From a virus, in IMG/VR virus record IMGVR_UViG_3300042564_002372, positions 1-64,000 of that record: a stretch of 64,000 nt of DNA. One strand, given 5' to 3'. Position 1 is the stretch's first letter, and every line of letters starts with the position of its first letter. Shown piece after piece: positions 2,656-19,989 of the stretch. The translations under genes and the position numbers were made by a program. Below the pieces are notes generated by a model. That model saw only the letters and a program-made list of their open reading frames with translations. It did not search any database and was not told where the DNA came from.

Positions 2656-2691
2656 ATTTGCAATTTCTAACTAAAATGATTATTTTATATC

Positions 2692-2931: not shown

Positions 2932-3955
2932 AACAGAAGCTAACTACAGAGCTATTCAAACTGATAGCTCAAGTTCATTGAAAGAGTTCTCAATGGACAG
3001 AAAGAAGTACCACAAGAAGTATGTTCTTGGAGAACGTGTAGAAGAAAAGGACAACCAGGCTGCAACAATTGGCAGGCTTGTTGAAACGCTTCTTCTAGAG
3101 CCTGAGTTGTTTGATCAAAGGTTCTACATGTCTTCTTGTGCAAGCACACCAACAGGACTAATGCTAGACTTTGTGGAGGCCTTGTACAAGTTCACTAAAG
3201 AAGCAACAGATGACTTTGGTGTTGTTACAAGAACATTTGATGAACTAACAAAGGATGCCTATCTAGAATCAGGATTCAAGATTAAGATTGAGCAAGTGAT
3301 TAGTAAGTTTGTAGGCACTGACGCTGAGGTGTATTACAATGAGATCAGAAAGGTGAGGTCACAAAACCTGACAGTGATTAACAGCAATGATGTCACAAAT
3401 GCTGAAAGAATTGTGACAGAATTGAAAAACAACATTGTCACAAAAGATGTCATCAATCTAACCAGTGATGTTAGATATACTGTTCTGAATCAGTATCAAG
3501 TGGATTCATACACAGTGAACAACCATGTGTTCAAGAGTATGTTTGACAAACTTGTTGTTGATCATGACAACCAAACTGTACAGGTGTATGATTTGAAATG
3601 CACATGGAGCGTAGAAAACTTCTATGATGAATATTATTTGTACAGACGTGCGTATATTCAAGCATATCTTTATTACAAAGCAACAGTTCATCTAGTTGAA
3701 TCCAAATGGGAGGGATATAGAGCACTTATCCCAGCATTCATTGTCTGTGACAGTACAAACTATTACAACCCACTCATCTACACTCTTACAGAAGAAGATT
3801 TGGGAGATTGTTATAATGGCTTCACTTACAAAGGGAGAAACTATCCTGGTGTGAAAGAAACTATTGAAGATCTTAAATGGGCTTTGTACAATGGTGTCTG
3901 GAATATCTCCAGAACAAATTATGAAAATAAAGGAATCGTAAACATTAGGGGATAA
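2912..3955 (+). CDS. PD-(D/E)xK exonuclease (RecE/DUF3799-like)
   Basis: KSMFDKLVVD...VYDLKCT catalytic motif and YIQAYLY; start moved to ATG 2912. Confidence 0.75.
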   Translation: MIQGQSKTEANYRAIQTDSSSSLKEFSMDRKKYHKKYVLGERVEEKDNQAATIGRLVETLLLEPELFDQRFYMSSCASTPTGLMLDFVEALYKFTKEATDDFGVVTRTFDELTKDAYLESGFKIKIEQVISKFVGTDAEVYYNEIRKVRSQNLTVINSNDVTNAERIVTELKNNIVTKDVINLTSDVRYTVLNQYQVDSYTVNNHVFKSMFDKLVVDHDNQTVQVYDLKCTWSVENFYDEYYLYRRAYIQAYLYYKATVHLVESKWEGYRALIPAFIVCDSTNYYNPLIYTLTEEDLGDCYNGFTYKGRNYPGVKETIEDLKWALYNGVWNISRTNYENKGIVNIRG

Positions 3956-3956
3956 A

Positions 3957-4523
3957 ATGAAATTGACGAGAAGCATCACTACGTTATTTATGATAAAACC
4001 ACTTGGTCTAAGCATTGAAAAGCTTGAAAGGGTAGGTTTCATCAATGGCTTTGCACAAGATGTGGAGCACGATTGTATATATCAAGATTGCGTGTATTTG
4101 CTTTTCAAACCCACTGATATGGATGTGTTCAGAGATTTCATAGACAGCGAATATGAAAGAACTGACAACATCGTAGAAGATTATGATTACGAAGGTGGTT
4201 ATGTGGTTGTGGTTTACAAACTAGATCCAAAGTTTAAGAAGGACTATCAACTTGTTAGACAGGGATTGTATTCCAAAACCAGTAAAGACTTTCAAAATGT
4301 TTTTCCAAAGGTGGTGAAGATCATGAAGAATGGTAAACACAGAGATGAGATATCTTTGCAATACAGAATCTTCAACAGAACACAAGATCTCATCAACTTT
4401 TGGGAAGACAAAATAGGTATAACATTATCTAGCGATCAAGAAGTTTGGGAAGGATTCCACGAAGAGAGAGAAACGTTAAACATTAACAACATAAAACAAC
4501 ATGTCGAACAAGTTAGCAATTGA
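3957..4523 (+). CDS. conserved hypothetical phage protein
   Basis: 188-aa ORF tightly coupled to its neighbours. Confidence 0.75.
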   Translation: MKLTRSITTLFMIKPLGLSIEKLERVGFINGFAQDVEHDCIYQDCVYLLFKPTDMDVFRDFIDSEYERTDNIVEDYDYEGGYVVVVYKLDPKFKKDYQLVRQGLYSKTSKDFQNVFPKVVKIMKNGKHRDEISLQYRIFNRTQDLINFWEDKIGITLSSDQEVWEGFHEERETLNINNIKQHVEQVSN

Positions 4524-4869
4524 AATACTAAATGATTATCCCCTGGCTACAGAAGCTGCTAGGGATTGGTTCTTGAAGAAGATGATTGAAAGCTTTGAGC
4601 AAGACAATGCTCCAGAGGATTTCAAGAATCAAATGATATCAAGAGGAGTATCAGACATCACTCTAGCAATTATGTTTGAGCAGAGTCCTAGAAACTTCTT
4701 TGATGTTTTGGATGAGAATAAGATAGTGATTGAGATTCTTAGAGATGAGCACATCAATCCTGACTTATTCTATTACAAAATCAATGGCAAAACAACAGGG
4801 CAGTTCTTCGAAGGAAGAGTTCCTTGTGAGAGAGCTGCTGTAGAGAAGGCTTTCGAGTTATTAAATTGA
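4501..4869 (+). CDS. hypothetical protein
   Basis: 122-aa ORF in operon. Confidence 0.7.
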   Translation: MSNKLAIEILNDYPLATEAARDWFLKKMIESFEQDNAPEDFKNQMISRGVSDITLAIMFEQSPRNFFDVLDENKIVIEILRDEHINPDLFYYKINGKTTGQFFEGRVPCERAAVEKAFELLN

Positions 4870-5087
4870 TACACGAGTTCAAAAATCCCATCCCTGTTGT
4901 TGTAGAAAATAACAAGGATGGGTATGCTCTTTATGTCAGTGACTCTGGAGCATTCGAGAATGATATATGGTGTGTTGTACTCTGCGATGGAGGACATGTC
5001 AGACATTATATGTCAGATCAAATCAGAGTTTATGTAAATGCAACATTAGGAATAGAGAAAAATGGAAACAATCAGAGTTCATTGTAA
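4866..5087 (+). CDS. hypothetical protein
   Basis: 73-aa ORF, TTG start overlapping the upstream TGA. Confidence 0.65.
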   Translation: MIHEFKNPIPVVVENNKDGYALYVSDSGAFENDIWCVVLCDGGHVRHYMSDQIRVYVNATLGIEKNGNNQSSL

Positions 5088-5307
5088 AAAAGATTTTAGA
5101 GGAAACATTGATATCAGAGACTTCATTGTAAAATCTGCAATTAAAAATAATAAAAGTGTAACAGTTACATGTGGATCATTCCCTGGAATAAGTGTATATA
5201 CACCAGCTGAACTGTTAAATCCTGTAAAAATCAGTGAGCCGTACAAAGCAAAGTATGGAAATATGGAAAGCTATACTCTGTATTCTTATCCCTGGAAATT
5301 TGATTAA
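5062..5307 (+). CDS. hypothetical protein
   Basis: 81-aa ORF ending before a terminator. Confidence 0.65.
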   Translation: METIRVHCKKDFRGNIDIRDFIVKSAIKNNKSVTVTCGSFPGISVYTPAELLNPVKISEPYKAKYGNMESYTLYSYPWKFD

Positions 5308-5327
5308 TTAGTGTGTTTTTGTTTATT

Positions 5328-5362
5328 AAAAAAGCCCCATGACATGTGTTGTGGGGTTTTTT
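5328..5362 (+). terminator. Rho-independent terminator
   Basis: AAAAAAGCCCCAT...GTGGGGTTTTTT hairpin. Confidence 0.8.
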
Positions 5363-5364
5363 AA

Positions 5365-5395
5365 TTGAAAATGTTAAAAAAATTAATTAAATTCG
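5365..5395 (+). promoter_or_regulatory. Bacteroidota-type -33/-7 promoter upstream of recA
   Basis: TTG (5365), 20 nt, TAAATTCG (5388); one mismatch to TAnnTTTG. Confidence 0.5.
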
Positions 5396-5416
5396 TTATC
5401 TAAATTCAATTCAATA

Positions 5417-6442
5417 ATGGCAAAGAAAAAAGAAAATCAAGAGGAACAAAGTAAGTTCCAAGCAGCTCTGGACAAGCTGAACAAAGCGTATGGTGTAGGT
5501 AGCGTACTTACACTGAATTCTAAGAACCAAAACAACTACGAGCTGATCAGCACAGGTTCTGTTGGGTTTGATCACATCACACTAGGTGTAGGAGGTTTCG
5601 TTAAGGGAAAACTCTATGAACTAATGGGATGGGAGGGTACAGGTAAGTCAACCATCTGTGGTCACACTGTAGCAGAGTGTCAAGCAAAGGGTGGTAGAGT
5701 GTTGTACATCGATGGCGAGCATGCTGTTGATAAGATTTATTTCGAAGCTCTAGGTGTAAACACTGACGAGATGTTGATTGCTCAACCAAGCTGTGGCGAA
5801 GAAGGTTTTCAGATTGCTATGGACTTAATCAACACTGGAGAGATAGATCTTGTAATCATCGACAGCGATAGTTCATTGATTCCAAAGAAGGTGTTAGATG
5901 GTGATGTAGGTGATAGTTCTATTGGTAAGAAGGCTGTGCTCAACAGCAATGCCTATCCAAAGCTAAAGACAGCTCTATCTACGCACAATGTATGTGTGAT
6001 AGTAATCAGTCAGTATCGTGAGAAGATTGGTGTTATGTTTGGTAATCCAACAACAACTCAGGGTGGTCATGCGCTGAAGTTCTATTCAGATTGTAGAATA
6101 GAGGTGAGCAGATCTTTGGCAAAGGAAGGAGATGTAACTTATGGCAACATCACTAAGGTGAAGGCTGTAAAGAACAAGATGTCTCCTCCATACAGAATGA
6201 CAAGTTTTGATATTGTTTATGGTCAGGGTATTGACAAGTTTGCAGAGCTTATGGAGCTTGGTAGTGAGTATGGTGTTCTTAGAAAGTATGGCTCTACTGT
6301 GACATATAAAGAAGAGAAGTATCAATACGATGGATTCCAAAAGCTTCTAGAAGATAACCCAGAGCTAGAAGAAGATATCAAACAAACAATTATTAATCGA
6401 ATCAAGAACATAGAACCTACACCAGAAGATGATGGACTATAA
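5417..6442 (+). CDS. recA: RecA recombinase
   Basis: Walker A GWEGTGKS, YIDGEHA, IIDS, QYREKIGVMFGNPTTTQGGHALKFYS, KNKMSPP. Confidence 0.97.
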   Translation: MAKKKENQEEQSKFQAALDKLNKAYGVGSVLTLNSKNQNNYELISTGSVGFDHITLGVGGFVKGKLYELMGWEGTGKSTICGHTVAECQAKGGRVLYIDGEHAVDKIYFEALGVNTDEMLIAQPSCGEEGFQIAMDLINTGEIDLVIIDSDSSLIPKKVLDGDVGDSSIGKKAVLNSNAYPKLKTALSTHNVCVIVISQYREKIGVMFGNPTTTQGGHALKFYSDCRIEVSRSLAKEGDVTYGNITKVKAVKNKMSPPYRMTSFDIVYGQGIDKFAELMELGSEYGVLRKYGSTVTYKEEKYQYDGFQKLLEDNPELEEDIKQTIINRIKNIEPTPEDDGL

Positions 6443-6734
6443 TCAACTAGAAGCCCTTGTGATTGAATGGGCAGAGAACAAAGGTATTCTTCAGAAAGCT
6501 ACACCAGCAAGACAGGCTGACAAAACTCTTGAAGAAGTGGAGGAACTTAGAGCTGCTATTGCTGATGACAACAGAGAAGAGATAGCAGATGCTCTAGGTG
6601 ACATCCTTGTGACCATTATTATTCAGGCAAAGATGCAGAACATGTCTTTGGTTGAATGTCTTGAAGGTGCTTACAATATTATTGCTAAGCGTACAGGAAA
6701 GATGGTGAATGGACAATTTGTAAAAGATGCCTAA
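6429..6734 (+). CDS. MazG-like NTP pyrophosphohydrolase
   Basis: KTLEEVEEL...EIADALGD...AYNIIAKRTGKMVNGQFVK. Confidence 0.85.
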   Translation: MMDYNQLEALVIEWAENKGILQKATPARQADKTLEEVEELRAAIADDNREEIADALGDILVTIIIQAKMQNMSLVECLEGAYNIIAKRTGKMVNGQFVKDA

Positions 6735-7125
6735 AGCAAAGTGTAAAACATGTGGTGCATCCTGTGAAGGAGAGTACTGCTTTAGACACAAACCAAGAAA
6801 ACCAATGTTAGCAAGAATAACGACTAACTATTCAAACAAGCTCATCATAGAGGAGAAATCCTCTATGCGTGAGATGTTTTTGGGAATATGGAAGAAAAGA
6901 CCACACAAGTCTGAGATTAGTGGAGAGAGACTAGGGACAGAACCTTTGTCAATATTCTTCCATCACATACTTCCAAAGGAAAAGTATAAGCAGGCAGCTC
7001 TTGATGAAGAGAACATTATTCTTATGACGCTAGACGAGCATACAAATGTAGAGAATGACATCTATCGTTATGAAGAAGTGAACAAAAGACGTGAGTATTT
7101 AAAAGAAAAATATGATTTAACATGA
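6727..7125 (+). CDS. HNH-like nuclease with N-terminal Zn knuckle
   Basis: CKTC..C...C..H; FHHILPK...NIILMT.DEH. Confidence 0.65.
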   Translation: MPKAKCKTCGASCEGEYCFRHKPRKPMLARITTNYSNKLIIEEKSSMREMFLGIWKKRPHKSEISGERLGTEPLSIFFHHILPKEKYKQAALDEENIILMTLDEHTNVENDIYRYEEVNKRREYLKEKYDLT

Positions 7126-7334
7126 AGCAATTATTCCAATATACAGTTATATTTCACAAGTATGGACTTAACGAGTCAGGAGTTAAGGTGTATTTAGATT
7201 CTGAATTGATCATCGAGCCAAGATATGTGCTTGCTGCTGATGAGAAAGACGTTATCTTTAAAGCCACAAGAGAAGTGGGTGAAGAGTATGCACACTCTCC
7301 TGACAGTGTTGAAATCTTAATTAAAAAATTCTAA
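7122..7334 (+). CDS. hypothetical protein
   Basis: ATGA-coupled 70-aa ORF. Confidence 0.7.
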   Translation: MKQLFQYTVIFHKYGLNESGVKVYLDSELIIEPRYVLAADEKDVIFKATREVGEEYAHSPDSVEILIKKF

Positions 7335-7347
7335 AACCAATTACATT

Positions 7348-7647
7348 ATGAATCAATTCTTTTACACAAGAAAGGAACCAATTCAAGGGACAGACCCTCT
7401 TGAATTCAAAGAACACCTAGACAGCTTCAATATTGAGAAGGTGATTAGAACCATCATTGTAGAGAACGGTAATCGTCTAGTGCTACTAGATGATATTCAC
7501 GAACGCTCTACAGAAGTGCCTGATACCAATCCAAAAAATGGACAGATTAGAGGATACAAGCGTGAGCGTAACACTTACCAAACTGAAATCTATTTGTCTC
7601 CTAAGGATTCAGAAAGGTTTGTTAAACTGATGAGCATTGAGTCATGA
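7348..7647 (+). CDS. hypothetical protein
   Basis: 99-aa ORF with AAAACCAA leader. Confidence 0.75.
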   Translation: MNQFFYTRKEPIQGTDPLEFKEHLDSFNIEKVIRTIIVENGNRLVLLDDIHERSTEVPDTNPKNGQIRGYKRERNTYQTEIYLSPKDSERFVKLMSIES

Positions 7648-8264
7648 TTGATCTTATAAAAGAAGAAGTTAAGAATCAGATATTTGAAATTGCTGACATC
7701 TTAAATAATATAGGAGAAAGAGTGGAGGGTAATCTGATATGCGATATATCCTCAGACAATCTTATAGATGATGTAAATAAGAATAAGATTTATAATCTGA
7801 TGAAGTTGGCTGAAGGCAAATCAAAAATCTGCGAAATAGGAGTAAACGCTGGCCATAGCTTATTGCTAATGGTCAGTGTTAATCCTACAGCAGAATACCT
7901 CATATTTGATTTAGGTGGACACGCATACACTAGACCTTGTGTAGACTACATTAAAAAGCAATACCCCTCTACAAAAATAACAGAGGTGTATGGTGACACT
8001 AAAATAACTCTAAGTGAATACAAAAAGACTAAGAGTTGTGACATGATCCATATTGATGGTGGTCACGACACTCACACTGTAGTTAATGATTTCATCTACA
8101 CTCAACAGCTTCTTAAAAAGGGTGGTGTTGTTGTTTTTGATGATTACAACTACCACAACATAAAAGAGGTAGTTGACTATTACAGAGACAGAGGAATCAT
8201 ATCTGAGTATAAGACAGGCGTGGTTGAGACTGATTTACACTACATCTATACAGCAAATGATTGA
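7644..8264 (+). CDS. class I SAM-dependent methyltransferase (Methyltransf_24-like)
   Basis: EIGVNAGHS, DMIHIDGGH, VVVFDDY. Confidence 0.85.
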   Translation: MIDLIKEEVKNQIFEIADILNNIGERVEGNLICDISSDNLIDDVNKNKIYNLMKLAEGKSKICEIGVNAGHSLLLMVSVNPTAEYLIFDLGGHAYTRPCVDYIKKQYPSTKITEVYGDTKITLSEYKKTKSCDMIHIDGGHDTHTVVNDFIYTQQLLKKGGVVVFDDYNYHNIKEVVDYYRDRGIISEYKTGVVETDLHYIYTAND

Positions 8265-8904
8265 GAAAAATATCCACCAAATCTGGGTTGGTGAAAACAA
8301 GATACCTAGTCATATTCAAGAGTATATGGATAAGGTGAGAAGTTTTCATCAAGATTTTAATTACTATCTATGGAATGATAGTAATCTACCACAATTACCA
8401 GATAATCTAAAACAAATATACGATAGCTATGAAGAGCCAGCCATAAAGGCTGACTTACTCAGGATGTATGTGGTTTGGAAGTTTGGTGGGTTTTATCTTG
8501 ATGCTGATTTTGATACACTTAATGGATTTCATCTAGAGAGTGTGTTTAAAAAAGATTATGATGGGATGGTTGTTTACAATGATTCATACAAAATGTCTGC
8601 ACTTGCAAACAGCATATTTGGATTTAGTAGCAACCATCCTCTCATTAAATACCTAATTGATAATGTTGTTCATCGAGGTCAGTGGATTGGTCCTAATTGG
8701 TGGAGTCAAACAGTGTGTAACTATTTTAACCTGGATGTAAATACATCACAAGTTGCAGATCTTGAAATAAAATTAAAGGAGGTAAATCTACAACTAGGTG
8801 TATGGAAAGACATTGAGGATAATTGTTTTAGACATGATCCTCTATCATCATGGGTGCACGGATCTATTTGGAATGAGAAATTAAAAAGCGGAGATTATGA
8901 TTAG
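8257..8904 (+). CDS. glycosyltransferase, GT32/DXD sugar-binding family
   Basis: IEKNIHQIWVG, KADLLRM..VW.FGGFYLDAD, NHPLI, IGP; start moved to ATG 8257. Confidence 0.85.
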   Translation: MIEKNIHQIWVGENKIPSHIQEYMDKVRSFHQDFNYYLWNDSNLPQLPDNLKQIYDSYEEPAIKADLLRMYVVWKFGGFYLDADFDTLNGFHLESVFKKDYDGMVVYNDSYKMSALANSIFGFSSNHPLIKYLIDNVVHRGQWIGPNWWSQTVCNYFNLDVNTSQVADLEIKLKEVNLQLGVWKDIEDNCFRHDPLSSWVHGSIWNEKLKSGDYD

Positions 8905-9586
8905 TGTTTTAACTCTAACTTACAAAAGACATCATCTACTAGAAGAAGCAATTCAATCTTTTCTCTTCCAGAACAATGACACATGTGAGATGGTAGTGAT
9001 AAATGATAACGCAGAAGTTGACTACATTTTTAATCATCCTAATGTAAGAATCATCAATCACAAGGAAAGATTCCCATCTATAGCAGCAAAGTTTGAATGG
9101 GGATGTAAGATGTGCAAACATCAATACATCTATAGACTTGATGATGATGATCTTTTAGCACCTGAAGCCCTTGAAAACGTAATCAAAGACATCAATAATA
9201 ACCCTGGCTATGAAATCTACAGATGTAGAGGGATGCACTTCTTTTCAGAAAACGAATACCAAGGAGAAGGTGGAAGTGTGAATAATGGAAATGTCTACCA
9301 CAAAGCCTATCTTGATAGAATAAAGTTTCCAAACATAAGTATAGGGGAAGATTCAGAAATAACTTTTGGAAACAATTCAAAAATATATCAATCAAGTCTG
9401 CCCCACACAATGATTTACAGATGGGGAATGGGAACACTTCATATTTCTGGAATGGGTCAAGTGTCTAATGAAGAAGTGTTAGATCAAGCTGATAGAGTGC
9501 TAGACAACACAACAGGAATTATTGAATTAATTCCCAAGTTTCTAAATGATTACTACTCTCAGTTAAACAAAAAAGCCTCCAATTAG
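8897..9586 (+). CDS. glycosyltransferase family 2
   Basis: ISVLTLTY.R...LEEAIQS, EMVVIND, RLDDDD, GED. Confidence 0.85.
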   Translation: MISVLTLTYKRHHLLEEAIQSFLFQNNDTCEMVVINDNAEVDYIFNHPNVRIINHKERFPSIAAKFEWGCKMCKHQYIYRLDDDDLLAPEALENVIKDINNNPGYEIYRCRGMHFFSENEYQGEGGSVNNGNVYHKAYLDRIKFPNISIGEDSEITFGNNSKIYQSSLPHTMIYRWGMGTLHISGMGQVSNEEVLDQADRVLDNTTGIIELIPKFLNDYYSQLNKKASN

Positions 9587-10623: not shown

Positions 10624-10878
10624 ATGGAACAAACTGATGTTTTAAACCCTTTTGGAACCCACGAAGTGTTGAAGGTCATTGACGAAAACAAGAAGCCTAA
10701 CGAGTGGTGGAAAGATTATGTCTCACTCAATGAACCTGAAATTGAAAATGAATTCTACGTTCTTTTCCCAGATGGTCTCCTGGTTAAAAAAGGGAGAACC
10801 AAATTCAAAACCAGCGACTACCTCAAGGATCAAAAGTTCAAAAGCTTTAAGTCCTACTATGAAGAAGTTCAGGTTTGA
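10624..10878 (+). CDS. hypothetical protein
   Basis: 84-aa ORF with AAAACCAA leader. Confidence 0.7.
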   Translation: MEQTDVLNPFGTHEVLKVIDENKKPNEWWKDYVSLNEPEIENEFYVLFPDGLLVKKGRTKFKTSDYLKDQKFKSFKSYYEEVQV

Positions 10879-11287
10879 AGGTAATCCTAATCTTTATGGT
10901 TGGAAGACAAAACCTGTTGTAGGCAGTGTTTACACTGTCAAAGAAATGAACTTCATGAGACACCACTCTGGAAGCTGGGTGGGTATTACAGAAAAGGATG
11001 TATTAAAATGGAAAGACTTTGTACCAGTTGATATGAATAACTTTGACGAGAAAGTGAAAGAAGTTCTCAATGAGATTGAGACTCTTTTAATTAGTAAGAA
11101 TGCTAAGTATGGTAACTCAGCACTAGAACCACTAGGTGTGTTCAGTCAGTTGTCCGCAAAAAACGGACTACTGGTCAGGATAGATGATAAACTCAAGAGA
11201 ATCAAGAATGGTAGCCTTGAGAAGGATGATGAAGATGTCATCAACGATCTTATTGGTTACCTAGTGCTGTTAAAGATTAGTGGATAA
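10859..11287 (+). CDS. nucleotide-modification-associated domain (DUF1599/Nmad1-like, all-alpha NTP-PPase fold) protein
   Basis: KNAKYGNS...LLVRIDDKLKRI...DLIGYLVL; start moved to ATG 10859. Confidence 0.7.
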   Translation: MKKFRFEGNPNLYGWKTKPVVGSVYTVKEMNFMRHHSGSWVGITEKDVLKWKDFVPVDMNNFDEKVKEVLNEIETLLISKNAKYGNSALEPLGVFSQLSAKNGLLVRIDDKLKRIKNGSLEKDDEDVINDLIGYLVLLKISG

Positions 11288-11633
11288 TGTAAAATATATT
11301 TTACAAATGAGTGACTTATCTTTCATTGTGCTTTACATTACGTATTAATGCATGAGAAATCATACGTATTAGTGCATAAAAATTTAGTAAAAATTCATGC
11401 ACATTTGTCGCACATTTAGTGAGTTTTTGCGAAATAAAACTTGCCAAATGTCCCAAATATTGTAGGTTTTGGGGACGAATCACTTAACTATATTATGGCA
11501 CTTTTTCTATTTGCTGCCAAAACACGTAATGAAATCGTGACAAATACGGAAGATATTCGAATTACGAGGGTAAATTTTACAACTTTCTACCCTCGTTAAC
11601 TTATAAGTTACCAAATTGGGAACTTTTGTTAAC
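11288..11633. repeat. non-coding array of about 11 distinct inverted repeats between convergent genes
   Basis: e.g. TGTAAAATATATTTTACA, GTGCAT..ATGCAC, TCGCA..TGCGA, GTCCC..GGGAC, TGGCA..TGCCA, ACGAGGGTA..TACCCTCGT, TAACTTATAAGTTA. Confidence 0.75.
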
Positions 11634-11635
11634 CT

Positions 11636-12178
11636 TTAGAATAACTTCTTACTAATTCCCAAACTGTGAATTCTTGTCACAGGTTGATATTGGTATTGAA
11701 AAAGATATTTGTTGTCCAAATAGGAAACTTTTGCGCCTGGATCTAACAGAGAGTTGATGCTTGCGCCTATATATATTCCTTTAGGCTTTTGTATAATGGT
11801 CTTAGTCTCTGTGTTGGTGATTGTATTCGTAACTGTAGGGATTTTGAAATCGTTTGTTACACTCATTTTAAGCACGTCTCCCAGCACTTCTCCACTAACA
11901 TAGGTGTTACCATATTCGAAAGGAGTTGTTGTGCTGAAGCTCTTAATTGTAGGCTTGTAATCAACAAGAATTGTATCCCTAAGAACTTCTGTTTTTATCT
12001 TAGTTTTAGGGATGTACACTGTGTCCTTAATCTCTTTGTAAACTGTATCAGTTTCTGTTTTTGTAGAGAATCTGTAAACTTCTTCTGCTTCAGGCTTTGG
12101 ATAGATAATAAATGTTAGAATCACTCCTGCAAAAAATGCTAGGATAGCAATTTGGATTTTTTGTGTGTCAGGTATCAT
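11636..12178 (-). CDS. membrane-anchored protein (N-terminal TM helix, beta-rich C-terminus), possibly spanin-like
   Basis: IAILAFFAGVILTFII; DTVY/DTIL repeats; ends in LGISKKLF. Confidence 0.65.
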   Translation of the reverse strand: MIPDTQKIQIAILAFFAGVILTFIIYPKPEAEEVYRFSTKTETDTVYKEIKDTVYIPKTKIKTEVLRDTILVDYKPTIKSFSTTTPFEYGNTYVSGEVLGDVLKMSVTNDFKIPTVTNTITNTETKTIIQKPKGIYIGASINSLLDPGAKVSYLDNKYLFQYQYQPVTRIHSLGISKKLF

Positions 12179-12185
12179 ATTGGTT

Positions 12186-12284
12186 TTAAATTTTAGGCCA
12201 CTGCTGGTGGTTATTCTGAAAGTTGTTTGACAGCTTTATTCCTAACCAAATTTCTTTTAGAATTGATTTAAACTTTGCTAACAT
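12186..12284 (-). CDS. small hypothetical peptide (not in ORF track)
   Basis: MLAKFKSILKEIWLGIKLSNNFQNNHQQWPKI*, TAATG-coupled to the upstream gene. Confidence 0.5.
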   Translation of the reverse strand: MLAKFKSILKEIWLGIKLSNNFQNNHQQWPKI

Positions 12285-12505
12285 TATTGTTCAATGTGTA
12301 GGTTGTCTTGTTCTAATATTTTTCTCAACTCTTCCCTACACCATTTATAGGCATTGTAGGTTTCGTCAGATAATTCTTTGTATTTCATTTCAGAACGAAG
12401 CAACTGATCAAAGTCCCAAATGGCACTCTTGTAGTTATGTCCATTAATTGCTGCCTGAAAGTCGCTATGTTCTTCAGGTAAATAAAATTCTAAGATTGCT
12501 TTCAT
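12284..12505 (-). CDS. conserved hypothetical phage protein
   Basis: MKAILEFYLPEE... 73 aa, coupled overlaps. Confidence 0.75.
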   Translation of the reverse strand: MKAILEFYLPEEHSDFQAAINGHNYKSAIWDFDQLLRSEMKYKELSDETYNAYKWCREELRKILEQDNLHIEQ

Positions 12506-13377
12506 AGTGGGAATTTAATAGAGTCTATCAAAACACTGTAAGTATTTGTACTTTTTGATTGATGTCTTTTCATATTGAATAAGATAATTCTACCACCTGT
12601 AGGTTTTGGAGGAGCACCACGTTCAATGTGCCATCCATGTGATCCATCACCGTATTCTTCTTTGTATGTTCCAACAATGCAATGGTGAATTTCTTTCTGC
12701 TCCAGCTCATATTCACGCTTTCCACGATTGAATTTGAGAACATCCCTCACATCATTTCTACACCAGTTCTCGTGTATATGACCAAGAACAAATATATCCA
12801 TGTTCTCATACATTTCAAGAGCTCTTGTGAGGTTAATTGCGCCTTTCGTTACGATACCTCCACCACCAGAGCCGTGGAAATACTTAAGATGTTTAACAAG
12901 TGATACACTACTGTAATTTAACTTTATAGAAACCCATCCACCATATCCACCCACTTGAACATTTGTTTTGTTCTTGTAGTTGAGAAGGTCTACAAATCTC
13001 TGTAGAACATCTGTCTCCTGGTATTTGATAATGCTAGTCTCATGGTTACCGTATCCAATCACTGTAAACAGATGTGCGTATGGACTGAACCATTCTACAG
13101 CTGTCTCAATAACAGAGTCTAGGTATTTAGCGTTGTTGTGTTCTGGTCTAATGTCTGATTTATTAGCTCTACGATCGCCCCTGCCCTGCATGAGGCAAAA
13201 TAGGTCTCCGTTGATCAGGATGGGTATCTTATTGGTCTTACAATAGTCTAGATGATCCTTGAGCTTTGCTCTATCACATTTAGGATTGTCCCAGTGTAAG
13301 TCTGATATGATTGCTAGCTTATAGTCTTTTAGTTCTAAAGAATGTACATTCTTCAGTATTCTTTCTATTTTAAACAT
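12502..13377 (-). CDS. calcineurin-like metallophosphoesterase
   Basis: SDLHWD, NGDLF, GNHE, FHG, GHIH motifs. Confidence 0.9.
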   Translation of the reverse strand: MFKIERILKNVHSLELKDYKLAIISDLHWDNPKCDRAKLKDHLDYCKTNKIPILINGDLFCLMQGRGDRRANKSDIRPEHNNAKYLDSVIETAVEWFSPYAHLFTVIGYGNHETSIIKYQETDVLQRFVDLLNYKNKTNVQVGGYGGWVSIKLNYSSVSLVKHLKYFHGSGGGGIVTKGAINLTRALEMYENMDIFVLGHIHENWCRNDVRDVLKFNRGKREYELEQKEIHHCIVGTYKEEYGDGSHGWHIERGAPPKPTGGRIILFNMKRHQSKSTNTYSVLIDSIKFPL

Positions 13378-13515
13378 TGTGCGGAGCTTTAGTTGATTTA
13401 TTCACTGACCACGTAAAAAGTTTTGGTCTCTTGGAATTAGTTGATTTTAAAAAGTCGAAGTTATAACGTATGTGCTTAGAACACATAACTAAAAAAGTGA
13501 TATATAATATGATTG

Positions 13516-13788
13516 CTAGCAGTTCCACTTTCTCAGTGCTAAGGCTTTTCTTGTGGGTTTGCCATTGGGCTTTGTCATAGGGCCCTTTACACCAGACATT
13601 CTAGCACAGAAAGACTTGCGTCTTTTTGCAGGCTTGCTATCTGGGTCAAGCTTAGATGGCTTAGTTGTTACAGCCATCTTTAACTTGCTTCCAGGATTCT
13701 CTCTTCTGTAGGATGCTACACCTTTACGATTGAGGCCACCTTTAGGATCTTTACCTTCTTTTCTTGTCCAAGCTGCTGTCTTTGCCAT
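13516..13788 (-). CDS. small basic phage protein (DUF6321-like)
   Basis: GGLNRKG..SY...PGSKLK...RRKSFCARM...ALRKWNC. Confidence 0.75.
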   Translation of the reverse strand: MAKTAAWTRKEGKDPKGGLNRKGVASYRRENPGSKLKMAVTTKPSKLDPDSKPAKRRKSFCARMSGVKGPMTKPNGKPTRKALALRKWNC

Positions 13789-14150
13789 TATCCTTTCTTT
13801 TTAATAGTTGATTTTTTAATAGGAAACCCATTTTTATCATAACCTGGCTTACTCTTTCTAGATTGTCTTAAAGCATCATCTTGTGCTTTTAAGGCTTTGC
13901 TAATATATTCTTTTTCTTTAGCAGTTCTTTCTTTCCGCTCTTCTGAAGCAAGTTTCCCTCCATAAGGTGCATTTCTAACTTTTGCAGATTTAGCAAAATT
14001 AGTTTCAGATAAACGGTTATAATAAGCAGTACTATCTGCCGTAGGTTTTACAGATGTACCTTTCTGAGCTTTTGCTAAAGACTTAGGTTTTTTACCAGCT
14101 TTCTTCATTGACACAGCTATTGCAGCTTGTTGTGTTCTACTTTTTGCCAT
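13788..14150 (-). CDS. Lys-rich protein with KAQKG tag
   Basis: MAKSRTQQAAIAVSMKKAGKKPKSLAKAQKG; start moved to ATG 14150. Confidence 0.7.
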   Translation of the reverse strand: MAKSRTQQAAIAVSMKKAGKKPKSLAKAQKGTSVKPTADSTAYYNRLSETNFAKSAKVRNAPYGGKLASEERKERTAKEKEYISKALKAQDDALRQSRKSKPGYDKNGFPIKKSTIKKKG

Positions 14151-14526
14151 TTCCTTTTCCTTTATATTTATAATCAGGATTATCTTTGTGCCACTTCTTC
14201 GTAGAAGCAACACCTTGTTTAACTGTTTTAGCTCTTCCTATTTTAGTAAGGTTGATGGTGTCCCATTTACCTTTATCCATTGTAGGATGGTTTACCATTA
14301 TGTCTCCCTTCTTAGCTTTGCCTGCATTCTTTGTAGCCTTGTACACTACATGGTTTTCCCCACCAGCTTTCACCTTCACCTTTCCACCATTCTTTAGTGT
14401 AGAGCCCTTAAATGGTCCTTTCTTTTTAACGAGAGGACCATTTGGAACAGGCGTAGCGTTTATCTTCTCTGGAAGAGAGTTACGCATTTTAGGTGCAGCT
14501 TTTAATAGGTTTTTGATGGATGTCAT
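14137..14526 (-). CDS. Lys-rich hypothetical protein (LKNGG tag)
   Basis: 129-aa ORF in a coupled operon. Confidence 0.7.
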   Translation of the reverse strand: MTSIKNLLKAAPKMRNSLPEKINATPVPNGPLVKKKGPFKGSTLKNGGKVKVKAGGENHVVYKATKNAGKAKKGDIMVNHPTMDKGKWDTINLTKIGRAKTVKQGVASTKKWHKDNPDYKYKGKGNGKK

Positions 14527-14951
14527 TAGTATAACTGAAATACATTACTTGCATCTGTAGAATCCACTGCAATAAACCCAACATTAGAAATCTCATAGAT
14601 ATATAATGGTGGATATACAACAGAATAAAGCGGAGCACGAAGTGTCAAGTTATTCCACTTATCAGTATATCCAGCAGCAACAAGAGCTTGTTCAGCTTCT
14701 GCTTCTGTCATTTCTAAAGGTAGTTTTATAACTAGACAGTCTAGATATGGAGAATTCATACCTTTTACAACAGTGTTGCCATGCCCATCAACAAGTACTT
14801 GATAAGATGGATATTTCATATCTCCCTTAAAAATCACTTGCATAGCATGCATTCCCTTACCTGTAAAAGCTTGGTAGAGTTCAGCAATCTTTGATTCCTG
14901 CTTCACTGCTTCTACAGCAGCTTCAAGCATTTGATTAAAGTTTAGAAGCAT
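14526..14951 (-). CDS. hypothetical protein
   Basis: 141-aa ORF, TAATG coupling. Confidence 0.7.
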   Translation of the reverse strand: MLLNFNQMLEAAVEAVKQESKIAELYQAFTGKGMHAMQVIFKGDMKYPSYQVLVDGHGNTVVKGMNSPYLDCLVIKLPLEMTEAEAEQALVAAGYTDKWNNLTLRAPLYSVVYPPLYIYEISNVGFIAVDSTDASNVFQLY

Positions 14952-14952
14952 A

Positions 14953-15330
14953 TTACTTCTTCATTTTCTTTAGTGTCTGAGCAAGACGAGCTCTTTGACC
15001 AAGTTTACCAGGCTTCTTTGCAGCAGCTGCAAGTTTACCAGCAGGAATTGGTTCACCCTTCTTAGCACCAAGTTGTGCACGTAGAGCTCCTGGCTTTTTG
15101 ATAGCCTTCTGAATCCACTTACCACCTTTAGCTTTTTCTACCTCACCACCCTTTTTCATCATCTTGGTAGCACCAAGTTCTTTGTCTGGAGCAAGGCTCA
15201 CTTTAGTTTTTGCATTAACTGGAGGCAAGTTTCTTTCTTGCACTTTAGTCCAAGCACCATCAGGATCAACAGGTCCTACACGTTTTGGTTGAGTTTTAAC
15301 AACACCACCAGCTTGCATTTTCTTTTTCAT
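14953..15330 (-). CDS. Lys-rich putative virion protein
   Basis: MQAGG, MKKGG, KAKGG tags; KWIQKAIKKPGALR...RARLAQTL motif common in small phage proteins. Confidence 0.75.
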   Translation of the reverse strand: MKKKMQAGGVVKTQPKRVGPVDPDGAWTKVQERNLPPVNAKTKVSLAPDKELGATKMMKKGGEVEKAKGGKWIQKAIKKPGALRAQLGAKKGEPIPAGKLAAAAKKPGKLGQRARLAQTLKKMKK

Positions 15331-15473
15331 TTCTTTTTAGATTTAGATTGTGCCTTAATCTTTTTTTCTTGCTTGAGCATAGCAGCAGTGGGTTTTTTCC
15401 CACTGCCTTTGTTTGCTCTAATATTGTCCCAAAGACCTCTTTGAGAATAGGAGCCATCAGCTCTCTTAATCAT
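15327..15473 (-). CDS. small basic protein (not in ORF track)
   Basis: MIKRADGSYSQRGLWDNIRANKGSGKKPTAAMLKQEKKIKAQSKSKKK*, 48 aa, overlaps both neighbours. Confidence 0.7.
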   Translation of the reverse strand: MIKRADGSYSQRGLWDNIRANKGSGKKPTAAMLKQEKKIKAQSKSKKK

Positions 15474-15717
15474 TTCCTTCTTCATTTTTGTTAATGGTTA
15501 ATTGTGTAGGAGCAGGTTTGATTTTGCCTGCCTCAACATTCTTAGCCATAATGCTGTCAAGAGCTGTATTAGCCTTGTCAGCAAGGATGATTGCTGGAGC
15601 TTCTGGAAGGTTTAGAATGCTTCTTACAGCATTTACCACCATTGCAAATTCCTGACCATTTAGTTCAATCTTTTCATCTGGAGACCAGACGTACTTCTGT
15701 GTTGGATCGTAAGACAT
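15466..15717 (-). CDS. hypothetical protein
   Basis: MSYDPTQKYVW...; start moved to ATG 15717 behind an AAACCAA leader. Confidence 0.7.
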   Translation of the reverse strand: MSYDPTQKYVWSPDEKIELNGQEFAMVVNAVRSILNLPEAPAIILADKANTALDSIMAKNVEAGKIKPAPTQLTINKNEEGND

Positions 15718-15730
15718 AATTGTTATTGGT

Positions 15731-16012
15731 TTATAAAATGATTTCAAATGATATTGTGCCTGTAGTCTTAATACTCTTTGACAAGTTTAGTCTGATTCCA
15801 TATATGTTATGAAACTTCAGCACCTCATCAAGTAGCATTCCTATATACTTAGGATGACTTGGGGCAAGTCTAAATTGATATGAGTTGGAGTTCTTTGTGA
15901 TTTGCAAAGAAGAAAGCTCATCGATTGAGTCAATCATTCCTTCTAACCTTGCAAAGTAGACCATGTCGTTATCCTGCATGATCTCTGGAAAGAACTTCTT
16001 TACTATATCCAT
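15731..16012 (-). CDS. hypothetical protein
   Basis: 93-aa coupled ORF. Confidence 0.7.
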   Translation of the reverse strand: MDIVKKFFPEIMQDNDMVYFARLEGMIDSIDELSSLQITKNSNSYQFRLAPSHPKYIGMLLDEVLKFHNIYGIRLNLSKSIKTTGTISFEIIL

Positions 16013-16428
16013 TAAGATAAAGTTAGTAAATATTTAGTTTTAGCCGCTTCACCAGACAAAGAATCTGCAAGATTTGCAATGTCATGATATGAATTTATTT
16101 CAGCGTAAGATTTTAATGATGATGCAAATGCCATTAATTCAGAAACAACAGCCTCAGCTGATGTAGTGATGATTGGTTCTATCCTCATGGAAGTAGGTCT
16201 TCTACCTGTATATCCCATTAGCTTCTCAATCACACCATCTTTAAAGTCATGAACATAATCATACAATCCACCAAGTGCTTGATGCTCTGCATAGCTTGTA
16301 GTTTGCCAGTGCAACAAATGTAGTTGCTCATGGAAGTATGTTAGCTTAGAGGCAATGGACTCTAGAGACATTGCTCCTTGTCCATTGCCTTTGCTAATCA
16401 TTTCCTCTGGAAATAATGATTTTGCCAT
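16012..16428 (-). CDS. Dps/ferritin-like four-helix protein (DUF5856-like)
   Basis: LHLLHWQTTSYAEHQALGGLYD...D..IE...G; ends YLLTLS; true start MAKSLF at 16428. Confidence 0.8.
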   Translation of the reverse strand: MAKSLFPEEMISKGNGQGAMSLESIASKLTYFHEQLHLLHWQTTSYAEHQALGGLYDYVHDFKDGVIEKLMGYTGRRPTSMRIEPIITTSAEAVVSELMAFASSLKSYAEINSYHDIANLADSLSGEAAKTKYLLTLS

Positions 16429-16667
16429 TATCCTGGAGATGTAGTTGTAGTAGTAGTAGTAGGTGCTACGGTTGTAGTTGTAGTTGTTGTAGGTGCCACT
16501 GTGGTAGTCGTTGTGGTTGTAGGCGCACAGCACTCGTATGCTGGAACCTCTTTCCAATTACCAACTTTAGGCATTTGTCTTCTTAGGATCAAGCTACCTG
16601 CTACTACACGTCCGCTACCATCGTAACGTACATACGCTTTCAAATCTTTTCTGTTGTAAGCTCCCAT
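16428..16667 (-). CDS. small protein with mucin-like (T7-VAP) tail
   Basis: ...ECCAP(TTTTTTTVAP)2TTTTTTTSPG*. Confidence 0.75.
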   Translation of the reverse strand: MGAYNRKDLKAYVRYDGSGRVVAGSLILRRQMPKVGNWKEVPAYECCAPTTTTTTTVAPTTTTTTTVAPTTTTTTTSPG

Positions 16668-16680
16668 AATTGTTTTACGG

Positions 16681-17697
16681 TTAATAGGTTAGGTTATATT
16701 TATTTTTTAGTTCTTTAATTTTATTTGCATAGAACCATGTGCAATATTTTTGTGATGTTTCATCATTAAGGATTGCATCTAGATGTGGATCTTTTGTTGG
16801 ATCTCCGCCATTGTGATATTTCCCTTTGTAGAAACAATGATATGTTCCATTGTGGGTTGATACAATTCCTGCATTATGAAACAGGGTATTTTCTTCTAGT
16901 CTTTCAATTGGATCAGTTGCCCAAGAGAAATTCATTTCTTTAATCACTTTTGTTTGTTGCCCTCTGAACCATAGATTCCAAAGAACAGCCCACATATCCG
17001 CACACCAGCTTTGATATCCTGCATTCTCACTTTCGAAGAACTCTTTGTTTATCTTTTGTAGATAAACTCTGATCATCATGCAGTCATTCATCACCTTGTC
17101 CCAGAATGTGGCATCAACATCTTTAAGGAAATATTGTGCTCCTCCTGAATGTTCGTTGTTGTCAATAGCTATTTGCTTATCGACACCAACTAAGCTCATC
17201 ACTTCTCCAAGAATGTCTCTAGTTTTATACTCCTCCAACTTATTTGGAAGAACGTCTTTCTCTTTACTCTCAAAATATCTAGCATTGATGTAGCTGTTTG
17301 TATCTGACAAATAGCAAACATCATCTTGTGCATAATCATCTACATTGAAATTCTTTGTGAATAGCACATCAGAATCGCAATAGAATATTGCTTTGCTGCT
17401 AAGATCTGGATTTGCCTTGAAGTGTTTCCACAACGTCCAAGGTCTAAGGATTGGAATGTATATAGGTAAATACTTATCTAAATCACCCTCGTCTTGATAG
17501 AAGTGAAACTCTGCTTCTGGATACAAATTGATAATTTGTTCCCATTTTGTGTTCTTCGCCCTTCCTGTTGGAATGTAAAGAAGAACAATTGCCTTATCAG
17601 AGTGTCCTATTTCTTTGAGACTTTCCAACCATAGATGCACTTGCCATGTAAAATAAGTGTCATCTGGCTGAACGCAGACAAATCTAAGATCCTTCAT
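16681..17697 (-). CDS. GT-A fold glycosyltransferase, putative peptide O-glycosyltransferase
   Basis: FYCDSDVLF (DxD), GGAQY, WCADMWA, LFHNAG. Confidence 0.65.
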   Translation of the reverse strand: MKDLRFVCVQPDDTYFTWQVHLWLESLKEIGHSDKAIVLLYIPTGRAKNTKWEQIINLYPEAEFHFYQDEGDLDKYLPIYIPILRPWTLWKHFKANPDLSSKAIFYCDSDVLFTKNFNVDDYAQDDVCYLSDTNSYINARYFESKEKDVLPNKLEEYKTRDILGEVMSLVGVDKQIAIDNNEHSGGAQYFLKDVDATFWDKVMNDCMMIRVYLQKINKEFFESENAGYQSWCADMWAVLWNLWFRGQQTKVIKEMNFSWATDPIERLEENTLFHNAGIVSTHNGTYHCFYKGKYHNGGDPTKDPHLDAILNDETSQKYCTWFYANKIKELKNKYNLTY

Positions 17698-17728
17698 ATT
17701 TAGTTGTTATTGGTTTTTAATTTTCTCT

Positions 17729-17869
17729 TTATGGAGCAGCAGTGGTTGTAGTGGTGGTGGTAGTACTTAGACTAGCAGTCACCTTAATCAACTGGTCAAG
17801 CTGATTAGAAATTTGCCAAAGAAGATTACTCTCCTGACTCCATCCTATTTGTTTATTTGGAATACCCAT
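17729..17869 (-). CDS. 46-aa poly-Thr mini-protein, paralogue of the N-terminus of the upstream gene (not in ORF track)
   Basis: MGIPNKQIGWSQESNLLWQISNQLDQLIKVTASLSTTTTTTTTAAP*. Confidence 0.8.
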   Translation of the reverse strand: MGIPNKQIGWSQESNLLWQISNQLDQLIKVTASLSTTTTTTTTAAP

Positions 17870-17886
17870 ATTATTATTTTTTAATT

Positions 17887-19221
17887 TTATCTACTAACTT
17901 CTTCCCAATCAATAGAAGCATACGCACCTTCGCCACCAGACGTTGTTGCTACAGCAATTTCTATTACAATCTCATAAGCAACCCCTGTTAATCCATTCCT
18001 TTCTAGTTGATTAGCAAAGAGTGCCTCTTTAAGTATGTTTATTGATGGAGATCCTTGATTTGATGAGTTAACAAAACCACTTGCTAGAATTCTTCCACCA
18101 GTCGCACTAGTTCCTGTAAGATTGTATTCTACAGCGGAGTTGACACCTGCATCAACCCATAATCCTCCAGTAGTTGTAGCACTTGCTACCACTCTCCATT
18201 GATAATTTTTACCATTACCTATTCCTAACAAAGAAATAGCCGTTACAATTACAATAGCATCTAATCTTGTAGATTTAAGTCTTACAGAAACAATTGGATA
18301 GTATGTACCAGCAACAGCAAAAGTTCTTGGCACAGTAATAGATGTTCCAGCAGATTGTTGTAATCCTCTAAGCTCATATCCTCCCTCAGAAATAACTGTA
18401 GAACAAATTTGCTTTAATGTACTAGCTCCAGATGTTACAGTGTTATTTCTGATCTCATAACGCAATGGTAAGGATGCAGTAGTGATGTATGTGCTAGCAA
18501 TAATGTTTGCGTGATTGAATGTGTGACAAACGATAAACTGTCCATTAATTATAAATCCAACACGTACAGATCCCACACCTAACCATTCCAAATCCATCCA
18601 AAGGATTTGTGCCTTTGTAAGATCTAGTGTAAGTCCAGAAGGTCCTGTACCATTTAGTTTGTCCCCATTCCAATTAGCTTGCAAAACTGCATTATCTACT
18701 AAAGATCCAGTAACAACACTTCTCTCTACAAAAGCTATTGCATTATCTGACTGTTCTAAATAAAATCCATTATCGCTTCCATAGTAACCAACACGTTGTC
18801 TAAGCCCAGTTTTAGCAGGGCTCATTACAAATGTGTTTAACACTAATAGTGATTTACCTGGTTGATAAGGAAATACTTTTATAGTTTCTCTTATAACTTC
18901 AGAGTCTAGGCTTGTTGTTACGTTCAAATCAACTAATCCTTGATCAACATTAAATACAGCACTTCCACCAACATTAGTTACAGTGGACCATAAATTATTA
19001 TCTGCATATCTGTGACTAGAATCAAAAAGTGTAAGAGGTTCAGACACTCTCTGTCTACCAAATGAATCGTATGTTGTAGCAGGAAGAACAACATTAGTTG
19101 GACTTGTTGATCCAGTAGTGCAACAATTAACTGCTCTGCTAACTTTCTCAAGATCATTCCATATCCCCCATAGGAGATTGGATTCTTGACTCCAACCAAT
19201 TTGTCTATTAGGTATGCCCAT
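17887..19221 (-). CDS. virion structural protein (beta-sandwich/lectin-like decoration or fibre)
   Basis: DSFGRQRVSEPLTLFDS, YQPGKS, WLGVGSVRVGF, LPLRYEI motifs of a common phage structural family. Confidence 0.65.
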   Translation of the reverse strand: MGIPNRQIGWSQESNLLWGIWNDLEKVSRAVNCCTTGSTSPTNVVLPATTYDSFGRQRVSEPLTLFDSSHRYADNNLWSTVTNVGGSAVFNVDQGLVDLNVTTSLDSEVIRETIKVFPYQPGKSLLVLNTFVMSPAKTGLRQRVGYYGSDNGFYLEQSDNAIAFVERSVVTGSLVDNAVLQANWNGDKLNGTGPSGLTLDLTKAQILWMDLEWLGVGSVRVGFIINGQFIVCHTFNHANIIASTYITTASLPLRYEIRNNTVTSGASTLKQICSTVISEGGYELRGLQQSAGTSITVPRTFAVAGTYYPIVSVRLKSTRLDAIVIVTAISLLGIGNGKNYQWRVVASATTTGGLWVDAGVNSAVEYNLTGTSATGGRILASGFVNSSNQGSPSINILKEALFANQLERNGLTGVAYEIVIEIAVATTSGGEGAYASIDWEEVSR

Positions 19222-19223
19222 TA

Positions 19224-19352
19224 TTATCTTCCTTGTCCTTTGTACTTACTAACCTTTTTACCCTTTGGTGTATTTAGATTCTTGGCTTTACCAAGTCTCT
19301 TTTTTCCAAAGGAGATTTTCTTTTCTGCTGTTGCAACTTTTGCCTTTGCCAT
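19224..19352 (-). CDS. small basic protein with C-terminal YKGQGR motif (not in ORF track)
   Basis: MAKAKVATAEKKISFGKKRLGKAKNLNTPKGKKVSKYKGQGR*. Confidence 0.75.
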   Translation of the reverse strand: MAKAKVATAEKKISFGKKRLGKAKNLNTPKGKKVSKYKGQGR

Positions 19353-19357
19353 AATTT

Positions 19358-19702
19358 TTAATTTTCAAGAGAGTCTATAACAACAGATTGAGAACTATCT
19401 ACACTCACTTTCTTTTTACCCCAGAAGTTTTTCTTCTCTGTAATGTAGATGGTGTCTCTAACTGTTATGGTTTTTACAACACTATTAGCTTTTACCAATT
19501 CTCTTTTTAAGGTTTCCACCCTCACCTCTATCCTTTCAATCAACTTGTCCACCTGCTTATCTGCTTTGGGCAGAACAACAAGGGCTTGTTTAGCAAGGCT
19601 ATCGCTCTTTACAAATATAGTATCAATTTGTTCAATGTCAACTACTTCTGTATTAGGACTTTCGCACCCAAGTAAAAATAAAACTATTAGAAATCTTTTC
19701 AT
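19358..19702 (-). CDS. lipoprotein, putative o-spanin
   Basis: MKRFLIVLFLLG-C lipobox, coiled coil, position in the lysis cassette. Confidence 0.6.
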   Translation of the reverse strand: MKRFLIVLFLLGCESPNTEVVDIEQIDTIFVKSDSLAKQALVVLPKADKQVDKLIERIEVRVETLKRELVKANSVVKTITVRDTIYITEKKNFWGKKKVSVDSSQSVVIDSLEN

Positions 19703-19989
19703 TTTATTTTACCTAGTTCTTGAAGCGTTGTGAGCTTTGAAAGTGATGCAGCCAATAGGCTGTCAGATCTCTTCAGATTCAATGTAATAACATCTATCTT
19801 GATTTCCAATGCTTCAATCTTTTTATCTTGTCCCTCAATTCGATTTTCATAATTGATCTTTCCATCAACATACAAATATCCAACAGCTGCTAGACAAATA
19901 AACATCAATCCTTTGATTGGTTCTTTTACAAATTCAGCAAAGCTGATAGGTAAAGCACTAAGCTTAATTTCTTTTTTATTCGTTGTCAT
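19699..19989 (-). CDS. putative i-spanin (TM plus coiled coil)
   Basis: GLMFICLAAVGYLYV TM then heptads; lysis cassette. Confidence 0.55.
   Translation of the reverse strand: MTTNKKEIKLSALPISFAEFVKEPIKGLMFICLAAVGYLYVDGKINYENRIEGQDKKIEALEIKIDVITLNLKRSDSLLAASLSKLTTLQELGKIK

Follow-up and report, generated by a model that had tools for sequence, protein, structure and literature searches.

A gene-free gap of 348 bp in the genome of an uncultured phage carries a row of operator-type palindromes, with arms of 7-9 bp around an A/T-rich spacer of 15 nt, at least three and probably four of which appear, by comparison with host loci, to copy or mimic the sites that anti-phage modules of Bacteroidota use to keep their own promoters repressed. 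The set would comprise one SoFic-type Fic operator, two AbiEi-type operators of differing arm specificity and one AbiEi companion site. The explanation that we tentatively prefer, whilst giving it somewhat less than an even chance, is that the gap acts as a binding-site sink (decoy) for the AbiEi and SoFic regulators of the host.

The window, by which we mean the whole stretch of 64,000 nucleotides analysed here, covers the opening 64 kb of the record of an uncultured virus, 109,827 bp long and ~95% complete. The window has a GC content of 35%, giant ORFs of 4125, 2143 and 1611 aa and, by family search, genes for a UvsX-like recombinase, an exonuclease, glycosyltransferases, virion proteins and an endolysin, a gene make-up that is, on these assignments, that of a crAss-like phage. 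The gap lies where a plus-strand block (1-9586, together with gene A) meets a minus-strand block (11636-21184); a simple ORF tiling of the 109,827-bp genome leaves 23 gaps that measure 100 bp or more, among which this one ranks second by length, and its GC content is 31%. The original prediction had placed a gene-free gap between two stop codons at this point, which we confirm with the extent given in Table 1. Gene A had no match in a Pfam search and gene B none in Pfam or PHROG, and 80 related loci were found for gene B; in the phage record collection no near relative was found by either DNA or the gene B protein. Two small ORFs within the gap (52 and 55 aa), considered as genes, had no PHROG match and were rejected because the underlying sequence is replaced, or carries insertions or deletions, in the closest relative, L002.

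A scan of the gap for sigma-70 promoters and terminators gave nothing above shuffled sequences, and the Bacteroidota promoter pattern TTTG..TAnnTTTG was absent from the gap and not enriched in the gaps of the genome. Inside the gap no intrinsic terminator (a G+C-rich stem with a 3-8-nt loop and a T-run) was found, the loops of the units being 12-19 nt long, and the sole terminator-like site from the scan, at 11664-11682, lies within gene B. With spacers fixed at 15 nt and no terminator-like site inside the gap, the earlier preference for operator geometry over terminators was borne out. Rfam covariance models run on the window at the gathering threshold gave no match, the window has no tRNA, the gap has no iterons, and a literature search returned no promoter or terminator data for this crAss-like phage group.

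Each of the 11 inverted repeats listed in the original prediction was recovered exactly as given, the perfect arms being 3-9 bp long, and so were two copies (at 11339 and 11362) of the direct repeat TACGTATTA(A/G)TGCAT. Inverted repeats with arms of at least 5 bp number 18, against 11.0 +/- 3.5 in dinucleotide shuffles (p ~0.04), and those with arms of at least 9 bp number two, against 0.08 expected from shuffles; both strands fold with a z-score of about -4, and none of 100 shuffles folds equally well. By repeat density the gap ranks among the uppermost 2% of all 348-bp segments of the genome, and its 1.44 repeats per 100 nt are typical of the other intergenic gaps of this phage (range 0-3.7). 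The excess over chance that had been predicted is real but modest, and ordinary for the gaps of this genome, so that the repeat count alone would not justify the claim, the evidence for which comes from comparison. On their own CACG-n9-CGTG, CATTA-n5-TAATG and the GTTaCCAA unit (3-5-bp arms) are at chance level. The repeats had also been described as unrelated, which they are only in part: the units at 11404-11436 and 11449-11477 belong, with the corresponding units of relatives, to a single family, TGTCnnA-N15-TnnGACA. None of the units has a second copy elsewhere in the phage genome or in the flanks of relatives.

Table 1. Genes, gap and units of the A/B locus, in window coordinates; a point in the strand column marks features that are not genes.
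Feature	Position	Strand	Description
Gene A	10679-11287	+	202 aa; left border, stop directly before the gap; phrog_1485 4.8e-17
Gap	11288-11635	.	348 bp, gene-free, between the stops of convergent genes A and B
Left module	11288-11360	.	Perfect 18-bp palindrome TGTAAAATATATTTTACA (11288-11305); AATGA-n12-TCATT; start of TACGTAT-N16-ATACGTA (11339-11368)
GTGCAT-N19-ATGCAC palindrome	11372-11402	.	In relative L002, TGCATGAA-N13-TTCATGCA
Putative AbiEi-type operator copy	11404-11436	.	TTTGTCGCA-N15-TGCGAaAtA; two right-arm mismatches
Putative AbiEi-type operator copy	11449-11477	.	TGTCCCA-N15-GGGGACG; right arm matches at 5/7 positions, 15-nt spacing kept
TaTGGCA-N14-TGCCAAA palindrome	11494-11521	.	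In L003, TTTTGGCA-N15-TGCCAAAA
CACG-n9-CGTG and stretch up to next unit	11523-11563	.	Conserved alongside 11564-11596; palindrome at chance level
Putative SoFic-type operator copy	11564-11596	.	ACGAGGGTA-N15-TACCCTCGT; perfect 9-bp arms, A/T-rich spacer
Gene-B-side module	11597-11635	.	TAACTTATAAGTTA and AAGTTaCC-N5-GGgAACTT; most widely conserved piece of the gap
Gene B	11636-12178	-	180 aa; right border of the gap

The unit at 11564-11596 is shared with host Fic promoters. An exact-arm scan of ACGAGGGTA-N15-TACCCTCGT in genome_contigs, which comprises one genome per prokaryote species (596 Gb), gave 56 matches, ~40 of them in Bacteroidota of several classes; by our rough estimate ~9 would arise by chance in a collection of this size from a self-complementary pattern of 18 bases. 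In 26 of the 56 the palindrome lies upstream of a Fic gene whose start is 35-130 nt away, and the proteins of these genes combine Fic_N and Fic with SoFic-like_C, a C-terminal winged helix (PADLOC SoFic, 4.5e-110). The Bacteroidota Fic promoters consist of a short palindrome (9-5-9), 7 nt, a long palindrome (9-15-9), 7 nt and a second short palindrome, followed by the start codon (examples among L139-L188 are L161:4250-4382 and L163:400-554); the short palindromes are ACGAGGGTA-N5-TACCCTCGT-like and the long one has the same arms around N15. A literature search found no description of this SoFic promoter array of Bacteroidota. The phage unit is identical to the central, long host palindrome in both 9-bp arms and in spacing; the full three-palindrome arrangement was not found in the phage, which has the long palindrome only, and the flanks do not match.

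Since the host spacers, at 5 or 15 nt, are one helical turn apart, protein binding is indicated. The perfect SoFic-type palindrome occurs once per genome in all five of five host genomes and is therefore locus-specific rather than a dispersed repeat; in IMG/VR (2.9 million viral contigs) it was found only in this phage clade, bar one chance in-gene match. Dispersed palindromes of the REP/BIME type were rejected as a source, given this single copy per host genome and the uniqueness of the units in the phage genome. A BLAST search of the whole gap against 401 Bacteroidota genomes returned mostly chance-level A/T-rich matches, the 11564 unit excepted. Fic proteins of this architecture are known from published work to bind, as dimers, palindromes upstream of their own genes: the Fic-HTH protein CccR represses its own gene via a long-spacer palindrome (PMC9755527), and SoFic dimers bind the promoter of their own gene (bioRxiv 10.64898/2026.07.09.737422). 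Like the palindromes of those systems, the Bacteroidota palindrome, a putative SoFic site, has a long spacer and is located in the promoter of a gene for a Fic toxin with a DNA-binding domain; unlike them, the phage has no fic gene and carries the central palindrome only. Two of the records with a Fic-promoter array, L179 and L184, are labelled as metagenome-assembled genomes of Actinobacteria (Aquiluna) and Janthinobacterium and have arrays nearly identical to those of Cyclobacteriaceae/Sphingobacteriaceae; they are probably mis-binned contigs.

The units of the TGTCnnA family are found at host AbiE operons. A metagenome scan of the perfect form of the 11404 unit, TTTGTCGCA-N15-TGCGACAAA, gave at least 119 matches (L195-L313), among which ~45 come from a single coding sequence that recurs, its spacer being G+C-rich, and were set aside as irrelevant, and 71 have A/T-rich spacers like that of the phage. 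An AbiEi gene lies within 700 nt in 35 of these 71 loci and starts 8-17 nt from the palindrome in 29; according to Pfam and PADLOC the neighbouring genes encode DUF6088/AbiEi (PADLOC 2.8e-68) and then the AbiEii nucleotidyltransferase toxin (1.7e-107). AbiEi homologues in IMG/VR have the general form TGTCnnA-N15-TnnGACA with a subfamily-specific inner nn, the TGTCCCA type included, so that the GTCnCA/TGn'GAC covariation among the phage units would represent a spread of AbiEi operator specificities. In the phage clade at least five such specificities can be told apart by arm type (TGTCGCA, TGTCCCA, TGTCTCA, TGTCTCCA and TGTCCAG). As for the 11449 unit, its left arm and spacer start (TGTCCCAAATATT) are identical to those of a palindrome 15 nt upstream of the AbiEi gene of L314, and TGTCCCA-N15-TGGGACA lies upstream of an AbiEi gene (PADLOC 1.3e-85) in L347. 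In that locus and in L349, both from Bacteroidota, TTTGGCA-N15-TGCCAAA adjoins TGTCCCA-N15-TGGGACA, just as 11494-11521 lies beside 11449-11477 in the phage, and the pair stands ~120 nt upstream of the AbiEi gene of L347. In 401 genomes TTTGGCA-N15-TGCCAAA was not enriched over a reversed control, and we regard 11494-11521 as a weak candidate for a second site of an AbiEi-type regulatory region. No ORF was found when an AbiEi gene was sought beside the TGTCACA palindrome of host G002.

AbiEi is known to bind inverted repeats in its own promoter and to repress the operon (Dy et al., 2014; PMC3985639). The published Streptococcus AbiEi operator (PMC3985639) differs from the phage units in its arms and in its N27 spacer, and a literature search found no description of the AbiE operator architecture of Bacteroidota. 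With the sites before abiEi-abiEii the phage units share the arms, the 15-nt spacing and much of the spacer, whereas the phage lacks abiE genes and an overlapping promoter box, and its units lie where two genes end. A perfect TAnnTTTG, the -7 box of Bacteroidota, faces the gene in 28 of 29 host AbiEi operators from Bacteroidota-like contigs and is made up of the last six bases of the spacer and the first two of the arm (e.g. L219:3821-3871); the host AbiEi site is, on this layout, an operator that overlaps its promoter. Amongst 12 distinct phage units, by contrast, none carries a perfect TAnnTTTG at one side or the other; a single mismatch separates 10 of them from it. No phage-encoded Fic, SoFic_C, DUF6088, AbiEi_4 or AbiEii was found, 129 related loci contain no Fic gene, and ~100 relatives contain no AbiE or Fic gene or fragment. 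With neither cognate genes nor box, the sites are conserved and stacked between stops without a gene to control or a promoter to fire; as in a titration locus, operator copies are clustered and have no regulated gene.

The predicted matches upstream of Bacteroidota regulator or defence operons were thus found for four of the 11 units, no partner being found for the other seven, three of which are at chance level, and tracing of 11288-11368, 11372-11402, 11523-11539 and 11597-11635 to host operators gave no match. Where many host regulators had been envisaged, the cognates belong to two families, AbiEi and SoFic. The decoy idea itself is partly supported, since the arms, spacing and context of four units correspond to those of operators that belong to host defence genes, so far as sequence comparison can tell.

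Some of the palindromes also occur before small genes in other phages. In IMG/VR TGCATGAA-N13-TTCATGCA is present in at least 120 viral contigs (L357-L476), with A/T-rich spacers in 44 of the 120 listed, and several copies precede small phage ORFs by 17-40 nt (e.g. that of a 63-aa 'MKQTAVEWL...' protein); a TGTCCCA-N15-TGGGACA palindrome precedes a member of the same small-gene family in L516. Their position before small genes in many other phages means that TGTCCCA-N15-TGGGACA and TGCATGAA-N13-TTCATGCA may simply be the usual promoter-operators that mobile genes carry, and not sites specific to defence.

The convergent order of genes A and B is kept in ~94 distinct IMG/VR relatives, in which the gap measures 17-923 bp and is a mosaic of 35-70-bp modules that relatives hold in other orders and sometimes reversed; the modules are confined to the A/B locus. 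That the locus should be compared in related phages had been proposed at the outset, and module content, order and arm-variant sets do differ between relatives. In some the gap has shrunk to 17-59 bp and is dispensable. The region 11520-11600 is 91-94% identical to L190, L194 and L002, and 11520-11600 together with 11400-11440 is 91-94% identical to L194, L190 and L003, against only 54-78% at third codon positions of genes A and B; by this comparison the modules are under constraint. The 11404-11436 unit is perfect in L002, L003 and L194 (94% identity to L194 and L003), and L190 retains the arms of its 11404-type unit around an exchanged spacer. The 11449-type unit is perfect in L002 and L003, in either orientation. 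A TGTCCCA-type unit with unchanged arms has its 15-nt spacer inverted between L002 (gap 187-213) and L003 (gap 190-216), which looks like a small hairpin-mediated inversion. The left module has 84-90% identity with L097, L055, L116, L109, L078 and L115, partly elsewhere within their gaps, and 38 relatives conserve the right half of 11372-11402, TAGTAAAAATTCATGCA, in a strand-specific manner. At the gene B end of the gap the final 38 nt match at 84-94% in more than 20 relatives, and AAGTTC-N9-GAACTT recurs in relatives; gene B may have its 3' untranslated region at 11597-11635. The A/B gap of L055 (211-850), L057 (106-730), L029 (165-800), L190 (1920-2570) and L194 holds a plus-strand gene of ~200-216 aa, read from its sequence as a putative cell-wall amidase or endolysin; in L057 a palindrome related to the left module lies ~45 nt upstream of this inserted gene.

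The presence of amidase-type genes in several relatives marks the gap as an insertion hot spot, and the palindromes could be promoter-operators left behind by lost accessory (cargo) genes of mobile elements and have no present function. This we consider unlikely, even though the gap ranges from 17 to 923 bp and holds an amidase gene or small ORFs in relatives, the AbiEi-type copies of the window are slightly degenerate, the promoter boxes are all broken and the same palindromes precede small genes elsewhere. Decay fits poorly with modules that are so much better conserved than the synonymous sites of the flanking genes and with arms that remain perfect when only the promoter box is affected; nor does any AbiE or Fic gene or fragment survive in the ~100 relatives, and the operators of at least three different operons are packed at distances of 5-30 nt, the DNA between them being free of coding remnants. 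An array of RNA or single-stranded DNA hairpins, acting as bidirectional terminators or stabilisers of 3' ends and resembling operators through shared ancestry, would account for the strong folding on both strands, the covariation of arms between units and the L002/L003 spacer inversion, which is of a kind that happens at hairpins. It would also suit the TTCGGA-N5-TCCGAA stem with a free loop that adjoins gene B in most relatives, and the 11564-type unit downstream of the amidase gene in L190 and L194, which could pair over 11 bp. We nevertheless hold it to be quite unlikely, since constant 15-nt loops are atypical of terminators, there are no U-tracts, the letter-perfect 18 arm bases and the spacing shared with the SoFic site are left unexplained, and the helical phasing of the host spacers speaks for a protein.

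Bound host or prophage wHTH proteins might instead stop or modulate convergent transcription, or let the phage sense defences. The gap does join two large opposed blocks, replication-side on the plus strand and late-side on the minus strand, and it combines operator-like units with conserved arms with the lack of a canonical terminator; such a switch or roadblock is decidedly unlikely, however, as it would rely on accessory host genes that are absent from many hosts, relatives with a 17-bp gap manage without the units, and no promoter or regulated ORF is evident. The alternatives named in the original prediction, an origin of replication and a free-standing structured non-coding RNA, would be in keeping with an A/T-rich, repeat-filled region and with the high transcription of long intergenic regions in the crAss-like phage phi14:2 (bioRxiv 10.1101/2020.03.07.982082). 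Both are very improbable given the lack of Rfam and tRNA matches, iterons and promoters and a content that is mosaic, shuffled, present in both orientations and nearly absent (17 bp) in some relatives.

If the gap is a sink, host dimeric wHTH regulators, namely AbiEi antitoxin-repressors and SoFic, would bind the units on replicating phage DNA, and with rising phage copy number the units would come to soak up both. With SoFic, whose dimer is taken both to bind DNA and to AMPylate, the toxin would be kept on DNA by the sink; with AbiE the operon would be derepressed and the supply of antitoxin maintained. The sets of arm variants differ between related phages, as would be expected if each follows the defence repertoire of its host. 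A fuller version, in which a lytic crAss-like phage would carry a DNA-only 'operator library' of promoter-less AbiE-variant and SoFic sites, swapped as cassettes among relatives, that sequesters wHTH regulator-toxins and antitoxins and so blunts defence, is one that we put forward with less confidence still, as possible rather than probable. Titration of an autorepressor raises expression of the toxin too, so that the benefit to the phage is not obvious, and the AbiEi-type copies of the window are imperfect, with one or two arm mismatches and a 14-nt spacer in 11494-11521, which could be decay.

Non-coding titration loci are known from datA of E. coli, which binds DnaA, and from incA of the plasmid-prophage P1, with its RepA iterons. 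The phage gap would resemble them as a cluster of sites that regulates by soaking up a protein and not via an adjacent gene; each of them binds one protein of its own replicon, whereas the phage array would bind several host defence regulators. Another relevant precedent is phage phiTE, in which pseudo-ToxI repeats mimic the RNA antitoxin of ToxIN. T4-like phages encode orphan antitoxin proteins (PMC11825919). In these cases a phage copy of a host toxin-antitoxin component likewise neutralises a defence, but it is the antitoxin itself that is mimicked, as RNA or protein, whereas here it would be the DNA target of the regulator.

A literature search found no paper on operator decoys directed against defence regulators. 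To our knowledge the known phage counter-defences are proteins or RNAs, and counter-defence by regulator titration would, if true, be a new layer made of DNA sites. The defences that a phage faces would then be readable from sequence alone, which would be most useful for uncultured crAss-like phages. The operator architectures of Bacteroidota SoFic and AbiE, a by-product that stands on its own, make autoregulation of these systems directly testable.

Elsewhere in the window, a 444-aa virion structural protein (17887-19221, minus strand, phrog_1645) has 59-64% identity to proteins of Synechococcus cyanophages and of Puniceispirillum phage HMO-2011. For a crAss-like phage this is a remarkably high identity, one that points to an exchange of genes between aquatic phages, and the likeness to proteins of marine cyanophages and HMO-2011 suggests an aquatic origin.
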